From IMG/VR virus record IMGVR_UViG_3300001868_000007, positions 1 through 64,000 of that record: 64,000 bases of DNA. One strand, given 5' to 3'. The notes under the pieces are model-generated. The model searched no databases. It saw only the letters and a list, made by a program, of their open reading frames with translations, and was not told the DNA's origin. This document shows, piece after piece, positions 935 to 43,093 of this stretch. This DNA comes from a virus. Its lineage: Duplodnaviria > Caudoviricetes. The stretch's first letter is position 1. Every line of letters starts with the position of its first letter. A program made the position numbers and the translations under genes.

Positions 935-2838
935 TGGACAAAAAAACAATTCCCTTTGGTGAGATTGGTTACATCACATTCAAAAGGACGTACGCTCGCA
1001 GAGTAAATGAAGACGATATCAATTCTCGCACAGAGGAATTTGATGAAGTAGTTAATCGAGAATTGAGAGCATCGGACACTCAACTTGGAGTAGGCTTTAC
1101 AGATGAAGAAAAGAAGCGTTATTTTGAAACTCGAATGGGTTTGAAATGGTCTCCAGCAGGAAGATTCATGTGGCAACTCGGAACCAAAACAGTTGAGAAA
1201 TTAGGATTACCCTCTCTTCAGAATTGTGCTTTCACTACAGTCAACGAACCGATTAAACCATTTACTTGGACGATGGATATGCTCATGCTTGGGTCGGGAG
1301 TCGGATTTAACATTCAGAGAGAAAATGTCTACAAGCTTCCAAAATTGAAGGGACCAATCAAGATTGAGAGAGTTGATGAGAACGATGTTGATTTCATCGT
1401 AGCAGATAACAGAGAAGGGTGGATCAAGCTACTTGGAAAAGTATTGAAAGCTCACTTCTACGCAGGAAAAGGCTTCATTTATTCTACAGTTTGCGTCAGA
1501 GGTAAAGGAGCTCCTATTAAAGGGTTCGGAGGAATATCAAGTGGACCTGAAGAGTTATGTTGGGGAATCAATGAGATTCACAAAATACTTAACAAGAAAG
1601 CCGGAAAGAAACTTGAGCCGATCGACTGCCTCGATATTATGAATATTATTGGATTTATCGTAGTATCAGGGAATGTTCGTAGAAGCGCAGAGATTGCAAT
1701 AGGTGATTACGATGATCTAGCTTTCTTGAGAGCTAAAACTTGGAGTCTTGGTAATATACCAAACTGGAGAGCAATGAGTAATAACTCGATCATCACTCCA
1801 AAAGATTTGAAAGACTTACCTAAAGAGTTTTGGCAAACTTACGAACAAGGTGAACCATACGGAATGATCAATTTAAGATTGGCTAAAAAGGTTGGTCGAA
1901 CTGGAGAAAAACAATACAAAGACGCTGATATTGAGGGATTTAACCCTTGTGGCGAGCAAAGTCTCGAACCTTACGAAACTTGCTGTCTCGCCGAAATATT
2001 CTTACCGAACATTGATTCTCCGGAAGAATTACAAGAAGTACTCATTTACGCTTATCGCATGTGTAAACATTCGCTTACACTTCCATGTCACTTGAAAGAG
2101 ACAGAAGAAGTAGTTCACAAAAACATGAGAATGGGAATTGGGATGACTGGAGTACTTCAAGCTACTGAAAAACAGAGAAGTTGGTTGAAAGAAGCTTACG
2201 TTTGGTTGAGACGATACGACAAAGAGTATTCAGAACAACACAACTTCCCGATCTCAATAAAACTCACAACTGTTAAGCCGAGTGGAACAAGCTCTCTTAT
2301 TGCAGGAGTAACGCCAGGAGTGCATCCAAATCCAGCAGGACCATATTACATCAGAAGAGTAAGAATCGCTGCAGACTCACCTCTAATTGAAGTTTGTCGC
2401 ACTCATGGATACGAAGTAGATTCTCAGATCAATTTCGATGGAAGCTTAGATCGAAATACGTTAGTGGTTTCTTTCCCATGTGCAATCCCAGAGACCACTC
2501 CAATCGCAGCAACCTTCGGATGGAAAGAGCAACTCGATGCTGTACGTCGAATGCAGGCTGAATGGTCTGATAACAGTGTATCTTGCACAGTGTACTATAA
2601 GAAAGAAGATTTACCGGAAATCAAAGAGTATTTAGATCAGTATTTCACAAACGAAATTAAGTCAGTAAGCTTTCTATTGTACTCAGGGCACGGATTCATT
2701 CAAGCTCCGTACGAGAGCGTTTCGAAAGAAAGATACCTTGAGATGAAGGCAAAAACAAAACAAATAATTTCAACTGATGTCGAAGAAGAAGCTTTCGAAC
2801 TTGACGAGTGTAGCTCAGGAGTCTGCCCTATCAAATAA
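934..2838 (+). CDS. nrdJ: Class II (adenosylcobalamin-dependent) ribonucleotide reductase, monomeric type
   Basis: TFKRTYAR, SPAGR, LQNCAF, NPCGEQSLEPYETCCLAE active site, TVKPSGT, and the C-terminal redox pair CSSGVCPIK. Confidence 0.92.
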   Translation: MDKKTIPFGEIGYITFKRTYARRVNEDDINSRTEEFDEVVNRELRASDTQLGVGFTDEEKKRYFETRMGLKWSPAGRFMWQLGTKTVEKLGLPSLQNCAFTTVNEPIKPFTWTMDMLMLGSGVGFNIQRENVYKLPKLKGPIKIERVDENDVDFIVADNREGWIKLLGKVLKAHFYAGKGFIYSTVCVRGKGAPIKGFGGISSGPEELCWGINEIHKILNKKAGKKLEPIDCLDIMNIIGFIVVSGNVRRSAEIAIGDYDDLAFLRAKTWSLGNIPNWRAMSNNSIITPKDLKDLPKEFWQTYEQGEPYGMINLRLAKKVGRTGEKQYKDADIEGFNPCGEQSLEPYETCCLAEIFLPNIDSPEELQEVLIYAYRMCKHSLTLPCHLKETEEVVHKNMRMGIGMTGVLQATEKQRSWLKEAYVWLRRYDKEYSEQHNFPISIKLTTVKPSGTSSLIAGVTPGVHPNPAGPYYIRRVRIAADSPLIEVCRTHGYEVDSQINFDGSLDRNTLVVSFPCAIPETTPIAATFGWKEQLDAVRRMQAEWSDNSVSCTVYYKKEDLPEIKEYLDQYFTNEIKSVSFLLYSGHGFIQAPYESVSKERYLEMKAKTKQIISTDVEEEAFELDECSSGVCPIK

Positions 2839-8758: not shown

Positions 8759-9085
8759 ATGAATTTTACAGAGTATCAAAACAAAGCGATTACTACAAAG
8801 ATCTACAAGCCAGAGGTAGCATTAGCGTATGTGACATTAGGAATCACCGGAGAAGCCGGAGAAGTAGCTGAAAAAGTAAAAAAGATCATTCGCGACGACA
8901 ATGGAGTTGTAAGTGAAGCGAAGAAAGTCGAAATCTCGAAAGAGTTAGGAGATGTCCTTTGGTATTTAGCTGCAATGTGTGACGAGTTAGGTCTCGACTT
9001 CGACGAAGTAGCTCAGCAAAATATTGACAAACTTGCTTCTCGGAAGGAACGCAGTGTCTTGACTGGATCGGGAGATAATCGATAA
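8759..9085 (+). CDS. mazG: MazG-like nucleotide pyrophosphohydrolase
   Basis: LGITGEAGEVAEKVKK…KELGDVLWYLA…NIDKL. Confidence 0.85.
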   Translation: MNFTEYQNKAITTKIYKPEVALAYVTLGITGEAGEVAEKVKKIIRDDNGVVSEAKKVEISKELGDVLWYLAAMCDELGLDFDEVAQQNIDKLASRKERSVLTGSGDNR

Positions 9086-9119
9086 ATCACAAAAATAAAG
9101 GTGATTCGACCTAAAAACT

Positions 9120-9160
9120 ACAATAGTCTGTTGTTTCGAAAGAGATAATGGACTATTTTT
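9120..9160 (+). promoter_or_regulatory. Variant copy of the repeated promoter, upstream of the dpdL-like gene
   Basis: acaatagtctGTTG then cTATTTTT at the same spacing; embedded AATAGTC/GACTATT inverted repeat. Confidence 0.4.
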
Positions 9161-9186
9161 ACATCCATAAATAAATAAATATAATC

Positions 9187-9549
9187 ATGGCAATGAAAAT
9201 CAGTACAGAAATCGTCGCTCGTACTTCAGTTGAGGGAATACATCGTTGGGGACAATGTCCTATTGAAGAGGTTAGCTATCTTCGAAACTACCACCGTCAT
9301 CTCTTTCAAATTGCTGCAAAACTGCCGGTATCCCACTCAAACCGTGATACTGAATTTATCCAATTAACCCATAAGATCAAAACCTATCTTCGCGAAACGT
9401 ATTTCAGTACTGAAACACAATGCTTATTCTTCGGAGATCGTTCTTGTGAAATGATAGCTGAGGAACTTCTAATTGAATTCAGTCTTTCTGAATGCGAAAT
9501 ACAAGAAGATAATGAGTCATCAGCAATTGTTAAAAGAGTGGAGGAGTAA
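9187..9549 (+). CDS. dpdL: QueD-like T-fold protein, DpdL-type (putative CDG decarboxylase)
   Basis: EGIHRW…YLRNYHRHLF matches the LxxxHRHxF signature I recall for DpdL; also RDTEFI, SCEMIA and EDNE. Confidence 0.65.
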   Translation: MAMKISTEIVARTSVEGIHRWGQCPIEEVSYLRNYHRHLFQIAAKLPVSHSNRDTEFIQLTHKIKTYLRETYFSTETQCLFFGDRSCEMIAEELLIEFSLSECEIQEDNESSAIVKRVEE

Positions 9550-39262: not shown

Positions 39263-40102
39263 ATGAGAACATTCAAAGTAACAGTCATTAAGACAGTTAG
39301 AACTTTTCTGATTCGCTATAGCGGAATCAAATGGAAAAGTATGGAGGGAGGAGACGTTTCAGCAGACAGTATCGATACAGCAATGAACAACTACACTCTT
39401 GTCGAAACCATAACCGATGCAGAAAAAATAATTGTAAAAGGGAAGAAGTTACTCTCTTTTGGAGATCTTAAAACTCTTATTCAAACAGCATTTACTTCTA
39501 TTTTTCAATCCAAAAAAGCGGATACAGAACTATATGTAGATGAAACTGAAAAAGCTTTGATTGCTACGATCAGCGATAAAATAAACCGAAGCGAAACACT
39601 CACAGCCGTTGAAATTCAGTTGTTGATTACTAACTTAATAGATAGTTCCCCAGAGTTCCTTAATACACTCAACGAACTTTCTAATGCTATAGCAAACGAC
39701 CCCAATTTTGCAACCACAATGGCTACGGAGCTATCAAAGAAGGTTACGGCTATTGTAGGCTATTCTCTTACAAAGAATGACCTTACAGACTTACTGAAAG
39801 CAGCGTATGACGATGCAGTTACGGCAATTCCAAACAAAGCAATTAAAACTACACAAGTAACCGAATTAACATTAACCGCTGCTAATTGGACACTAGTAAG
39901 CGGGTTGTACGAATATAACTTAGCAAATGTGAATATTACGGCATTAAATTTTGTAGAAGTGATACCAGATAATGCAACCATTGAAATAACTAAGTCGGCT
40001 CAATTACTTCCAACAAATGTAAGTAGCGCAGGAAGCGTTAAAATATACGCTACAAATTTACCAACAGGTGACATAGTAGTAACCATAAATATCTACGAAT
40101 AA
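39263..40102 (+). CDS. Tail-fibre-associated protein
   Basis: LIDSSPEFLNTLNELSNAIANDPNFATT is a typical tail-fibre helical motif. Confidence 0.65.
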   Translation: MRTFKVTVIKTVRTFLIRYSGIKWKSMEGGDVSADSIDTAMNNYTLVETITDAEKIIVKGKKLLSFGDLKTLIQTAFTSIFQSKKADTELYVDETEKALIATISDKINRSETLTAVEIQLLITNLIDSSPEFLNTLNELSNAIANDPNFATTMATELSKKVTAIVGYSLTKNDLTDLLKAAYDDAVTAIPNKAIKTTQVTELTLTAANWTLVSGLYEYNLANVNITALNFVEVIPDNATIEITKSAQLLPTNVSSAGSVKIYATNLPTGDIVVTINIYE

Positions 40103-41274
40103 TGATAGGAAAAACGATTTTACCCTATAGTAGTGGCAGTGCCGGAACTATCATTGTGGGCACCGGGAAGTATGCAGTGAAATTCATTGACTACGATGGA
40201 ACGATTTTAAAAATTCATAATGTAAATGCAGGAGAATCAGCTATCAAACCAGCTAATCCGACATTGACAAATTGCACTTTCAACGGGTGGATTGGAGACT
40301 ATACAAATATTCAGTATGCTACAGTAATCGGAGCAAGTTATAACTCAGCGCATACTTATTTAGACTTGACTATTAATGCAAACCACGGATTAACACCAAC
40401 ATTGTATTTAACGAAGACAAATACAACAGCGTTAAATGTCTATAATGATTCGACAAATGCCTTGATGGCTACAACCTCTACAGCAGGAACTGTGGCTATT
40501 CCGTTAACTTTTGCAAGTGCAGGGCAGTATATATTAAGAATAGAAGCCACAGCAAATTACTCTTTCAGTACTTATATTTTTGGTATTAACAATTTATATC
40601 AAATTTATGCTTTAAAAAATGTGATATTAGGGAATAGAGTGACTTCAATTGGTCTTTCTGCATTCTCCCCCTGCTACTCCCTTCAATCAGTAGTTATACC
40701 AAATTCAGTGACTTCAATTGGGTCTTCTGCATTCAGTGCCTGCTCCGCCCTTCAATCAGTAGTTATACCAAATTCAGTGACTTCAATTGGTCTTTCTGCA
40801 TTCTCCCCCTGCTACTCCCTTCAATCAGTAGTTATACCAAATTCAGTGACTTCAATTGGGTCTCAATCATTCAGTGGCTGCTCCTCCCTTCAATCAGTAG
40901 TTATACCAAATTCAGTGACTTCAATTGGTGTTTCTGCATTCTCCACCTGCTCCTCCCTTCAATCAGTAGTTATACCAAATTCAGTGACTTCAATTGGGTC
41001 TTCTGCATTCTTTGCCTGCTACTCCCTTCAATCAGTAGTTATACCAAATTCAGTGACTTCAATTGGTACTCAATCATTCAGTGGCTGCACGAGATTTTAT
41101 GAATATATAATTCAATCTACGACTCCACCATCTTTAACCAGTATAAATGCTTTTACAGGTATCCCAGCCTATTGTAAGCTATACGTTCCTGATGCAATCG
41201 TTGCAGATACTAAGGCGGGAACCAATTGGTCGTTTTATTCTTCACAAATTTACGCAATTAGCACACGATTATGA
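40102..41274 (+). CDS. BspA-type leucine-rich-repeat (LRR_5) protein, likely receptor-binding
   Basis: N-terminal VKFIDYDG (Flg_new-like) domain, then seven 23-aa SVVIPNSVTSIGxxxFxxC repeats. Confidence 0.85.
   Translation: MIGKTILPYSSGSAGTIIVGTGKYAVKFIDYDGTILKIHNVNAGESAIKPANPTLTNCTFNGWIGDYTNIQYATVIGASYNSAHTYLDLTINANHGLTPTLYLTKTNTTALNVYNDSTNALMATTSTAGTVAIPLTFASAGQYILRIEATANYSFSTYIFGINNLYQIYALKNVILGNRVTSIGLSAFSPCYSLQSVVIPNSVTSIGSSAFSACSALQSVVIPNSVTSIGLSAFSPCYSLQSVVIPNSVTSIGSQSFSGCSSLQSVVIPNSVTSIGVSAFSTCSSLQSVVIPNSVTSIGSSAFFACYSLQSVVIPNSVTSIGTQSFSGCTRFYEYIIQSTTPPSLTSINAFTGIPAYCKLYVPDAIVADTKAGTNWSFYSSQIYAISTRL
40639..41088 (+). repeat. 69-bp tandem repeat array (6.5 units)
   Basis: GTGACTTCAATTGG starts at 40639, 40708, 40777, 40846, 40915, 40984 and 41053; the scaffold is invariant and a few codons vary. 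Confidence 0.95.
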
Positions 41275-41556: not shown

Positions 41557-41597
41557 ACATACGATCGTTGCTAAATCGAATTAACAGTAGTATCTTT
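41557..41597 (+). promoter_or_regulatory. Repeated promoter copy 6, driving the RNA operon
   Basis: ACATACgatcGTTG…GTATCTTT at +33; closely similar to copy 5. Confidence 0.7.
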
Positions 41598-41623: not shown

Positions 41624-41698
41624 ACTAAGATAGCTTAAATGGAATAGAGTGCTAGTCTTAAAAGACTGGAGATGGTAGTTCGAGCCTGCCTCAAGGTG
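41624..41698 (+). tRNA. Degenerate tRNA-like gene (8-nt anticodon loop CTTAAAAG; two A·A mismatches in the acceptor stem)
   Basis: TAGCTT..TGG..AGAGT D-arm, CTAGT/ACTGG stem, GGTAG-TTCGAGC-CTGCC T-arm. Confidence 0.5.
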
Positions 41699-41819
41699 CA
41701 AAAATACAACACGCACGAATCAATTAGATGTAGCTTAGGCAGAATAATTTCGTAGTTCTTTAAGTTGGTAGCAGATAAATGTGACTCTGCAAATTTTAAA
41801 AAGAGTTCTTTGAAAATAC

Positions 41820-42196
41820 GGGGGTATATGATTTTGACAGCAGGTAGAAGCTGTATTGGAATAGCACGAGTTTGATAAGGTCTCGTTTCAAAAGATCACA
41901 AAATTAATTGACAACAAAATCAACCGCATGATTGATGAAGTACTAGTAATCAATTTTGCACAACGTGTAGCAATGAAAAATGCTGCATAATGTAGTCAGA
42001 AGTTTATTGAAGAGTTTGCTTGTTTAGATAAAATGAGATGGTGGAGCTGGAGGAAACTTCAGCCTAAAAGTTTGTTAGTTTGAAGCTTATAGATGCAAAA
42101 TTAACTAATGTATTGATGTGAATTATCAATTAAAGCTATAATCAATTCCAATATAGATTCCTTGTTTGGACGAGGGTTTGACTCCCTCTACCTCCA
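41820..42196 (+). ncRNA. ssrA: tmRNA
   Basis: GGGGGTA/TACCTCC-A acceptor with G3·U70, TTTTGACAGC 5' motif, GAGGG-TTTGACT-CCCTC T-arm, and an internal tag ORF (41910-41990) ending in AA*. Confidence 0.92.
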
Positions 42197-42245
42197 CAAA
42201 ACTGCGGCTTTCCGCATATTATGAACATTTAAAAATCGAGTCATT

Positions 42246-42428
42246 ATGACAAACATTCAACAAGGATTTAGCGATCTAGTTTTAGCTGGAGTAATCATTT
42301 TAGTTTTCTTTTTTGCGATTTTACTAACAAAAGTATTGTGGAAGATCATCGATCTGATCATTTACAAGATCAAAATCAATCTTGAGTTAAAGAAAGATCA
42401 CTTGAGAAGTTTAGGATTAAAGAAATAA
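42246..42428 (+). CDS. 60-aa single-TM protein inside the RNA operon
   Basis: Hydrophobic LVLAGVIILVFFFAILL segment and a basic tail. Confidence 0.55.
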   Translation: MTNIQQGFSDLVLAGVIILVFFFAILLTKVLWKIIDLIIYKIKINLELKKDHLRSLGLKK

Positions 42429-42433
42429 TATAT

Positions 42434-42505
42434 CGCGAGGGTGGAGCAATTGGTAGCTTACGAGACTCATAACCTTGAGACGCAGTTCGAATTTGACGCT
42501 CGCAA
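42434..42505 (+). tRNA. tRNA-Met(CAT), initiator-like but degenerate
   Basis: CGCGAGG…TGGAGCA..TGGTAGC, CT-CAT-AA loop, C1·A72 mismatch; imperfect anticodon, T and acceptor stems. Confidence 0.6.
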
Positions 42506-42510
42506 CATAA

Positions 42511-42950
42511 TAGCAGAAGTAGAAATTCAAAAGTGAACCAATCTAACCTTCGTTGGACAGAGGGAGACAAGGGTGAGGAAATCCACTAAACTGCTACTAA
42601 CACATAAAATCGAATGAAAAGGTCAACTCTATTGTTAATCATCTACTTAGCACTCTCAAACTGTTCGATCAGTATTGAGAGCAAGTCGAAACAAACCTCT
42701 GAAAAGAAGGTTTGGTTGAGCAAAGGTGAACAGAGAACTGACTACAATTCATTCGAACAAACCCAAGCTATCACTGGTGGAGGACAATTAACCGTTAAGG
42801 GGAGAGAAGTTGATATCGTTCCGTTGTCCGTTGAAAGAGTGAAGCTAGTTAACAAGAAGCTATTCAATTTTAGACTCTGGCAATTAGCCTGGACATTCGG
42901 TATAGAAACACAAGTCCTCGTATGAGTCAGAAATCATACCGAATTGATAT
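42511..42950 (+). ncRNA. Candidate large structured RNA of unknown class
   Basis: Five or more stems between the tRNA and the terminator (see finding). Confidence 0.4.
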
Positions 42951-42974
42951 CAAAAAACAAAACTCACACATAAC

Positions 42975-43022
42975 AAAGCTTCATTCGTACCCTTGCAATC
43001 ATGGGAGAATGAAGCTTTCTTC
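42975..43022 (+). terminator. Rho-independent terminator closing the RNA operon
   Basis: AAAGCTTCATTC…GAATGAAGCTTT 12-bp stem followed by CTTCTT. Confidence 0.75.
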
Positions 43023-43052
43023 TTGAAGTAATGTTAAAAAATATTAAAAGAA

Positions 43053-43093
43053 ACATACTCTTGTTGCTTTATCGAAATGTAGGTCGTATCTTC
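43053..43093 (+). promoter_or_regulatory. Repeated promoter copy 7
   Basis: ACATACtcttGTTG…GTATCTTC at +33. Confidence 0.75.

Follow-up and report, generated by a model that had tools for sequence, protein, structure and literature searches.

A candidate mini-intron-like hairpin RNA and a structured lipoprotein-like gene in a stable-RNA operon of a phage

Positions 42511–42950 of a 64,000-nucleotide stretch of phage DNA (positions 1 to 64,000 of IMG/VR record IMGVR_UViG_3300001868_000007; the whole stretch is hereafter designated the window) carry a series of RNA stems between a tRNA-Met-type gene and a terminator-type hairpin, which raises the question of what this ~440-nucleotide (nt) interval encodes. 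An earlier inspection of the letters alone (hereafter, the sequence-only reading) listed five stems and took the interval for a candidate new large phage noncoding RNA (ncRNA), comparable to the ornate GOLLD and ROOL RNAs. All five stems are found where they had been read, so that the observation itself is confirmed, but the interpretation is only partly supported: conserved RNA structure is present, and the 5′ 86 nt form a structured noncoding RNA of an uncatalogued family, whereas the proposal of a single, ornate ~440-nt RNA does not hold. Instead, we consider it probable, at roughly 70%, that the interval combines a separate mini-intron-like hairpin RNA with an unusually folded mRNA for a lipoprotein-like protein, both within one transcription unit. 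The anatomy and conservation of these two parts, the covariation of their helices, and the coding signature of the second part are demonstrated below.

The lipoprotein-like gene and its RNA structure

Six loci homologous to the 103-amino-acid open reading frame (ORF) of the interval (Table 1) were collected (L002, L006, L024, L026, L027, and L028; L numbers denote loci throughout). Frame +1 is free of stop codons in all seven homologues (101–109 codons), whereas each of the other five frames contains 2–12 stops. The proteins share 53–84% pairwise amino-acid identity, and all gaps within the ORF measure 3, 6, 12, or 18 nt in a nucleotide-level alignment, in contrast to the adjoining non-coding leader, which has 1-nt indels. 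The ratio of non-synonymous to synonymous substitution rates (dN/dS) ranges from 0.26 to 0.99 with a median of ~0.55, and is ~0.3 over the first 27 codons, the signal peptide. The ORF had been regarded as featureless, but its N-terminus is signal-peptide-like: all seven proteins start with M-K-(K/R) and continue with ~10 hydrophobic residues and the motif (L/F)-S-N-C, which contains an invariant Cys17. Judged from these signatures, positions 42614–42925 are a real gene for a small, fast-evolving, putatively secreted lipoprotein-like protein, paired with an upstream gene for a 60-amino-acid membrane protein. Since 312 of the 440 nt are open in all seven diverged homologues, with in-frame indels and dN/dS below 1, the idea of one ncRNA is unsupported. 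GOLLD (RF01998) and ROOL (RF03087) likewise lie in phage tRNA or stable-RNA clusters and contain many stems; the present stretch differs in that it matches no covariance model, consists mostly of a conserved ORF, and has a non-coding part of 86 nt. A cmscan search against Rfam found nothing in 42505–42960, either at gathering scores or, with permissive filters, at E ≤ 10.

The 60-amino-acid partner has one transmembrane helix and a basic C-terminal tail, and also precedes the lipoprotein ORF in five relatives (L002, L006, L026, L027, and L028); its match to SieB is weak and under the cut-off (E = 0.0017). Its presence shows that the operon, which the sequence-only reading had described as otherwise made of stable RNAs, also includes a protein gene. 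A protein of ~100 residues with a signal peptide and Cys, fast evolution, little predicted structure, and a small membrane-protein partner recalls Cor (NF047972), T5 Llp, and the Rz1 o-spanins; it differs from them in lacking a significant sequence match, in not being proline-rich like Rz1, and in the Asn before Cys. A role in superinfection exclusion or in the envelope is our guess.

Several observations weigh against this assignment. The residue before Cys is Asn in all members (L-S-N-C or F-S-N-C), outside the classical lipobox [LVI][ASTVI][GAS]C, and substitutions are enriched only weakly at third codon positions (415:485:541). The mature protein has no predicted fold, with a predicted local distance difference test (pLDDT) score of 42.6 by AlphaFold2 (AF2) and of 0.43 in the Atlas. 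Moreover, no family match extends past the N-terminus: Pfam gave none for the protein, PHROG 17010 matched the N-terminus only (E = 0.0024), and the NCBIfam model of Cor gave no significant match, the best value being E = 0.14 in one of the seven members. A protein search of 1.84 billion representatives at E ≤ 0.001 returned six sequences, namely, the window's own, four homologues, and one weakly matching long repeat protein. Candidate structural look-alikes from the Atlas all scored under the useful range, and a fold search was not worthwhile because of the pLDDT of 42.6. The protein is probably disordered as well as secreted.

The homologues keep not the frame instead of the base pairs but both. 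The stretch 42505–42960 (456 nt) folds with z = −2.89 relative to dinucleotide shuffles, and 42600–42960 alone with z = −3.85, none of 100 shuffles being equally stable. The conservation of stems was assessed on a seven-sequence nucleotide alignment (A4) that was not codon-guided, with slid partners and 500 shuffles as controls. For the four listed stems that lie within the ORF region, 88.7% of the alignment cells are paired, compared with 32–41% when one partner is slid, and 10 pairs are altered on both sides, compared with 0–3 for slid partners and none in 500 shuffles; the stems thus exceed chance. The hairpin over the lipobox codons (stem 2) and stem 4 are well supported. The latter is replaced by GAGCTG/CAGCTC at the same columns in all six relatives, both forms being complementary at 6/6 positions; this evidence has real yet limited weight, because the four changes represent one evolutionary event between two lineages. 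In the alignment fold, stem 4 sits in a larger domain closed by 42764–75/42838–48. Stem 5 is paired at 9/9 positions in the window and in L006, with one compensatory pair, and at 7/9 in the full-length L002, L026, L027, and L028. The interval is also slightly richer in G+C than its flanks (0.385–0.415 versus 0.31–0.35), as had been noticed before.

Blocks of 30–44 nt are invariant, synonymous sites included, over the lipobox hairpin and across the stop codon, where 42910–42939 (30 nt) is identical in six full-length homologues. A small overlapping ORF (42922–43026) was rejected as the cause of the latter block, since it meets a stop at codon 7 in L006; the constraint on 42910–42939 therefore acts at the nucleotide or RNA level. 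At the other end of the gene, the start codon is paired in a 9-bp long-range helix of the minimum free energy (MFE) fold (Table 1), which closes a 147-nt domain enclosing stems 2 and 3. The alignment fold of the relatives has an equivalent 8-bp helix, GAAUGAAG/CUUCAUUC (pairs 19–26 with 179–186); the window differs on both strands and retains the helix two positions out of register. Such a helix would hide the start codon of the lipoprotein mRNA and probably throttles or times translation, as far as the predicted structure indicates. Comparable long-range pairing of the start region silences the hok mRNA of plasmid R1 and the MS2 maturation gene, which are likewise compactly folded messages in which a distant coding segment pairs with the start codon and sequesters it. 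In contrast to these systems, no antisense RNA, 3′ processing signal, or toxin-like product was identified here, and the proposed regulation is read from structure.

A conserved module at the tip of the rod hairpin

The non-coding 5′ part of the interval folds into an 86-nt rod with the helices P1, P2, and P3 (Table 1), whose tip is a nearly invariant module of ~54 nt (42526–42578). The module is closed by a 3-bp helix, above which an asymmetric loop sets RAAAGUGAG in the 5′ strand against AUGA in the 3′ strand. Then come, in order, a CC/GG helix, a small internal loop of AA and CAA, the UCU/AGA helix, in which AA is bulged, and a terminal hairpin of 5 bp with the form CCNNN-loop-NNNGG. Two invariant GA dinucleotides face each other across the asymmetric loop (GUGAG versus AUGA), the bulged strand of which measures 6 nt; a canonical kink-turn has a bulge of 3 nt followed by sheared G·A pairs in tandem. 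In five relatives, P1 (TAGCAG/CTGCTA in the window) occurs as three complementary haplotypes, CAG/CTG, TGG/CCA, and CGG/CCG, and P2 is paired at 5–6 of 6 positions in all five. Where the module is variable, covariation is pronounced. In P3, the closing helix, one pair occurs as AU, GC, UG, or UA and its neighbour as UA, AU, or CG; three variable pairs of the terminal hairpin take 3–4 pair types each, with 18 cells changed on both sides, a number reached in none of 500 shuffles. The covariation of P1–P3 shows that the rod as a whole is under selection for its RNA fold, and the ~35 module positions that remain invariant across unrelated contexts argue for a conserved partner.

The window hairpin scores 62.7 bits (E = 1e-12) with the covariance model (R1), and the module has no Rfam match even at E ≤ 10. 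A leader peptide in the hairpin, to which GGAG...AUG/GUG bears a resemblance, was rejected: the downstream frame is unconserved, a 1-nt indel shifts it in L002, and the tRNA-embedded copies would give 2–17 unrelated codons. Introns of group I or II are far too large to be accommodated. Group I introns have a P3–P9 catalytic core (RF00028) and usually exceed 180 nt, whereas the tRNA inserts described below measure 50–58 nt and neither the window nor the tRNA-bearing loci gave such a match in Rfam. Self-cleaving ribozymes (hammerhead, twister, twister-sister, pistol, hatchet, hairpin, and hepatitis delta virus (HDV)-like; families through Rfam 15) gave no match at E ≤ 10.

Pattern scans of IMG/VR and JGI metagenome contigs, together with two loci reached via protein homologues, identified 14 distinct phage loci carrying the module, with one copy per phage record by R1. 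In prokaryotes, two pattern scans of 185,579 species gave one chance match, which lies in a protein repeat of Gemmatimonadales; a relaxed pattern, in which the UCU/AGA helix was free to vary, gave no new members. In every locus, the module is at the tip of a long helix. Seven copies are free-standing (the window, L002, L006, L015, L019, L026, and L027), and the window copy is flanked by P1/P2, with no tRNA around it. Five of the free-standing copies are counted as lying in phage stable-RNA clusters that include a tmRNA (transfer-messenger RNA) gene. In the window group, such a gene is seen upstream in the window and in L006, the contigs of L002, L026, and L027 being too short to reveal one, and L019 has the module beside a different tmRNA with a different tag peptide. 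Thus, tmRNA genes of two phage groups (L006, 2088–2452; L019, 1856–2224 on the minus strand; window, Table 1) have a module copy ~0.3–0.7 kb downstream. L015 is an exception among the free-standing copies, the fetched locus containing neither tRNA nor tmRNA.

The hairpin immediately precedes the lipoprotein ORF in the window, L002, and L026, and lies 110–350 nt upstream of it in L006 and L027, whereas L024 and L028 keep the ORF and lack the hairpin. Being absent or displaced where the ORF is kept, the hairpin is therefore no dedicated leader of the lipoprotein gene; together with its tRNA-embedded occurrence in relatives, this also makes it a unit separable from the ORF. Directly upstream of the ORF, L024 (378–561), L027 (667–856), and L028 (520–708; all approximate) carry a closed multi-stem element of ~185 nt, with a 16-bp closing helix, four compensatory pairs among the three sequences, and no Rfam match. 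Since the window has tRNA-Met and the module where these relatives have the ~185-nt element, the slot upstream of the ORF swaps structured-RNA cassettes.

The other seven copies (L007, L008, L012, L013, L014, L016, and L017) reside in the anticodon arm of tRNA or tRNA-like genes, as inserts of 50–58 nt. With introns allowed, ARAGORN calls tRNA-Asn(GUU) with a 50–51-nt insert in L007, L012, and L017, split at nt 33–35; the tRNA model of Rfam extends across the insert in L008 and L016, and acceptor and T arms mark L013 and L014 as tRNA-like. In L007, L012, and L017, the closing helix has GUU as its 3′ strand and the complementary AAC at the beginning of the insert, and in L008 the two strands are GAA and UUC. 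Accordingly, in four tRNA genes of two tRNA families, the closing helix is formed by the anticodon itself. When the insert is removed from the sequences as read, the loops UUGUUGA, UUGUUAA, and UUGAAAA result, which are normal 7-nt loops for Asn and Phe. The helix between anticodon and insert, and the normal loop left on removal, indicate that the module behaves like a 50-nt mini-intron in these four tRNAs. In-silico excision in all splice registers does not fix the borders, since ARAGORN accepts almost any of them.

Three further observations concern the loci of these copies. L019 contains another over-long tRNA (~1595–1473, minus strand), whose anticodon arm holds a 51-nt insert that differs from the module, has a comparable rod-like layout, and is not detected by R1. 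In L016, a second tRNA of 115 nt (1000–1114, minus strand) adjoins the module-bearing one. The L007 record, a fragment of a phage rated by CheckV as very large (7% complete at 39 kb), has a gene for an Rnl2-family RNA ligase (L029; G001 8934–9431) ~3 kb upstream of the module-bearing tRNA-Asn.

The closest known counterparts are the tRNA genes of Lak megaphages, which contain ‘enigmatic’, highly conserved introns for which no mechanism was given (Devoto et al. 2019, PMC6784885). In both cases, as the relatives of the window module show, the anticodon loop of a phage tRNA gene carries a short insert of conserved sequence, which is too small for a self-splicing intron, belongs to no Rfam class, and has no known removal route. 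The window copy differs from the Lak introns in lying outside any tRNA, where it forms the tip of a free 86-nt hairpin flanked by tRNA-Met and an mRNA. We consider the interval to hold a member of this class of mini-intron-like phage modules, which is poorly understood and occurs here in a new setting, outside tRNAs.

The transcription unit and its neighbourhood

The window belongs to an 84.9-kb phage record in IMG/VR. Cultured phages closest to it by helicase similarity have Chryseobacterium and Flavobacterium as hosts; the closest of all, Chryseobacterium phage MA9V-3 (44.5% identity), has neither an annotated RNA gene nor an intergenic gap upstream of its helicase gene. When the region and the module were compared with cultured phages at the nucleotide level, neither gave a real match.

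On the plus strand, a promoter-like motif is followed by an odd tRNA, tmRNA, the 60-amino-acid ORF, tRNA-Met, the rod hairpin, the 103-amino-acid ORF, and a terminator-type hairpin (Table 1). The intergenic motif ACATAC-N4-GTTG(C/T)T-N2-AT(C/A/T)GAA has five copies in the window (3191, 30115, 41557, 43053, and 45318), compared with 0.05 expected by chance, and is probably a phage promoter of Bacteroidota-like layout, its promoter action being suggested by sequence. Around the unit, it occurs only at 41557 and at 43053, just beyond the terminator. The terminator hairpin was missed by the terminator scan because its loop exceeds 8 nt; in relatives, the same slot is filled by other stem sequences, each followed by a T run. 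On the basis of these motifs, we infer that 42511–42950 is the 3′ third of one plus-strand unit of ~1.4 kb, extending from the motif at 41557 to the terminator.

Table 1 Features of the putative transcription unit, including the helices of the interval 42511–42950.
Feature	Coordinates	Strand	Basis or remarks
Promoter-like motif ACATAC-N4-GTTGCT-N2-ATCGAA	41557..41580	+	Likely unit start
tRNA with 8-nt anticodon loop (ARAGORN ‘taaa’)	41624..41699	+	ARAGORN; Rfam tRNA 33.2 bits (gathering 29)
Phage tmRNA	41820..42199	+	Rfam RF00023 56.2 bits (gathering 47); tag peptide reported by ARAGORN
60-amino-acid single-pass membrane protein ORF	42246..42428	+	ORF reading; conserved upstream partner of the lipoprotein ORF
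tRNA-Met(CAU)-type gene	42435..42504	+	Rfam tRNA 35.6 bits (gathering 29); no call by ARAGORN
86-nt rod hairpin	42511..42596	+	P1 42511–16/42591–96, P2 42518–23/42582–87, P3 42526–28/42577–79
Invariant core CCAAUCUAACC-[hairpin]-GGAGACAAGG	42538..42572	+	Pattern matches; helices CC/GG, UCU/AGA with AA bulge, CCNNN/NNNGG
103-amino-acid ORF, lipoprotein-type N-terminus (MKRSTLLLIIYLALSNC...)	42614..42925	+	Conserved frame, in-frame indels, dN/dS
UCGAAUGAA with start codon 42614–16	42610..42618	+	MFE fold; pairs with UUCAUUCGA (42748–56), predicted 9-bp long-range helix
Stem 2, hairpin over lipobox codons	42653..42681	+	98.7% of cells paired; 2 compensatory pairs in L028
Stem 3, hairpin, partly conserved	42692..42714	+	77.6% of cells paired; lost in L026, L027, L028
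Stem 4, GGACAA (42782–87)/TTGTCC (42824–29)	42782..42829	+	100% paired; 4 compensatory pairs
Stem 5, ATTCGGTAT (42895–903)/ATACCGAAT (42936–44)	42895..42944	+	Spans stop codon; 77.8% paired overall
Terminator-type hairpin, 12-bp stem AAAGCTTCATTC/GAATGAAGCTTT, then CTTCTT tail	42975..43018	+	Read from sequence

ARAGORN folds the first tRNA of the unit solely with an 8-nt anticodon loop containing a four-base ‘taaa’, and this tRNA is identical across three near-identical contigs (L003–L005); candidate identities are a Leu(UAA) tRNA whose loop is unusual and a tRNA of the frameshift type. Immediately before the RNA operon, 40102–41274 encodes a 390-amino-acid protein with seven near-identical, leucine-rich repeats of 23 residues (SVVIPNSVTSIG...).

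Possible roles of the module

What, then, might the module do? We tentatively regard it as the recognition element of a protein-dependent system of RNA cutting, or of cutting and joining, the likeliest of the readings, though one that we hold with less than even confidence. In tRNAs, the module would be excised as an intron; in the window, processing at the module would part the stable RNAs from the mRNA that follows, or a small, stable hairpin RNA would be set free. The latter outcome would resemble the ‘species 1 and 2’ of phage T4, which are small and stable, have no known function, and are encoded in the tRNA gene cluster, being co-transcribed with the tRNAs and released by tRNA-processing enzymes. 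The likeness lies in their being small stable RNAs of a phage tRNA cluster; the T4 RNAs are not known to be related to the module in sequence and do not occur inside tRNAs.

A more specific form of this proposal is doubtful, namely, that an undescribed bacterial or phage cutting-and-joining system removes the module from tRNA anticodon loops and also processes non-tRNA transcripts, here freeing the lipoprotein mRNA from the tRNA/tmRNA precursor, as a counterpart of archaeal bulge-helix-bulge (BHB) processing. BHB motifs are cut by the splicing endonuclease in archaeal pre-tRNA, pre-rRNA, and some mRNAs, and place a 3-nt bulge on either side of a 4-bp helix at the exon-intron borders. As with BHB motifs, a structural signal prolongs the anticodon stem, base pairs form between anticodon and insert, and both tRNAs and non-tRNA transcripts contain it. 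In contrast to the 3-nt/4-bp/3-nt geometry, the module has loops of 9/4 and 2/3 nt and a closing helix of 3 bp (alignment A5); it is also conserved in sequence, whereas BHB motifs are conserved in structure only. Furthermore, the host is bacterial here, because tmRNA is present, and bacteria are not known to possess the splicing endonuclease.

Other findings count against both the intron-like behaviour and the processing proposal. The search pattern demanded the core including the remaining helices, so that copies without the invariant core could not be found; the invariance of the module is therefore partly a matter of ascertainment, the pattern scans recovering core-bearing copies only. In three of the seven embedded copies (L013, L014, and L016), the removal rule that restores the loops of the other four yields no canonical anticodon loop, and no allele of the L007-type tRNA without the insert was found when one was searched for. 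In the three phage records searched, genes of RtcB and L7Ae type were absent and an Rnl2-type ligase was present in one, the L007 phage, no cutting or joining enzyme being consistently encoded.

Two further explanations of the module appear unlikely. It might itself be the product, a stable small RNA presented on a tRNA scaffold or as a hairpin and titrating a host protein, for instance a tRNA-targeting defence nuclease or a translation factor. Such a decoy would suit the ~35 positions kept in unrelated contexts, the constant placement at the tip of a long helix, the restriction to phages, and the tmRNA neighbour in two phage groups; it would leave aside the perfect anticodon loop obtained by removal in four tRNAs, which fits an intron better, and the prokaryotic pattern scans found no host RNA with the same motif that it could mimic. 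Alternatively, the module might be a selfish mobile mini-element that enters hairpin loops as DNA or as RNA, with a neutral passenger as its copy in the window. This would explain why a near-identical core is found in unrelated tRNAs and phages, present in some and absent from other close relatives, and in one copy per genome. However, no transposase, endonuclease, or terminal repeats accompany the module, and a passenger would not be expected to have flanking helices P1–P3 that covary.

The remaining explanations are improbable. As a leader acting in cis on the lipoprotein gene (a riboswitch, thermosensor, or antitermination element), the 86-nt hairpin would be well placed in the three loci where it immediately precedes the ORF, and its rod shape and invariant internal loops would be typical of a small aptamer; however, the module is also found inside tRNA genes with no such ORF nearby, and its distance from the ORF in L006 and L027 and its loss from the ORF-keeping L024 and L028 tell against this role. 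A single large structured RNA spanning the whole of 42511–42950, either a new ornate ncRNA or a dual-function RNA in which the ORF is secondary or untranslated, would account for the strong folding, the compensatory changes within the ORF (some of them non-synonymous yet pair-keeping), the invariance at synonymous sites, the lack of a predicted protein fold, and the stable-RNA setting, but is at odds with the open frame with its in-frame indels and dN/dS, the signal-peptide-like N-terminus, the separation of hairpin and ORF in relatives, and the lack of an Rfam match.

Collectively, the reading of the interval as a mini-intron-like hairpin RNA beside a folded lipoprotein-like mRNA bears on both the phage modules and the gene. 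Inserts in the anticodon loops of phage tRNAs have been known since 2019 without a mechanism, and the module is now also seen as a free hairpin, in phage stable-RNA operons, beside tmRNA genes in two phage groups, and directly upstream of an mRNA. Its free-standing existence argues that the module, and not the tRNA, is what is recognised, and the free hairpin offers a second, simpler substrate for tracing any factor that cuts or binds it. The lipoprotein gene is a clear case of a doubly constrained coding sequence, in which both reading frame and base pairing are kept, and its buried start codon would be an example of structure-controlled translation in a Bacteroidota-type phage.

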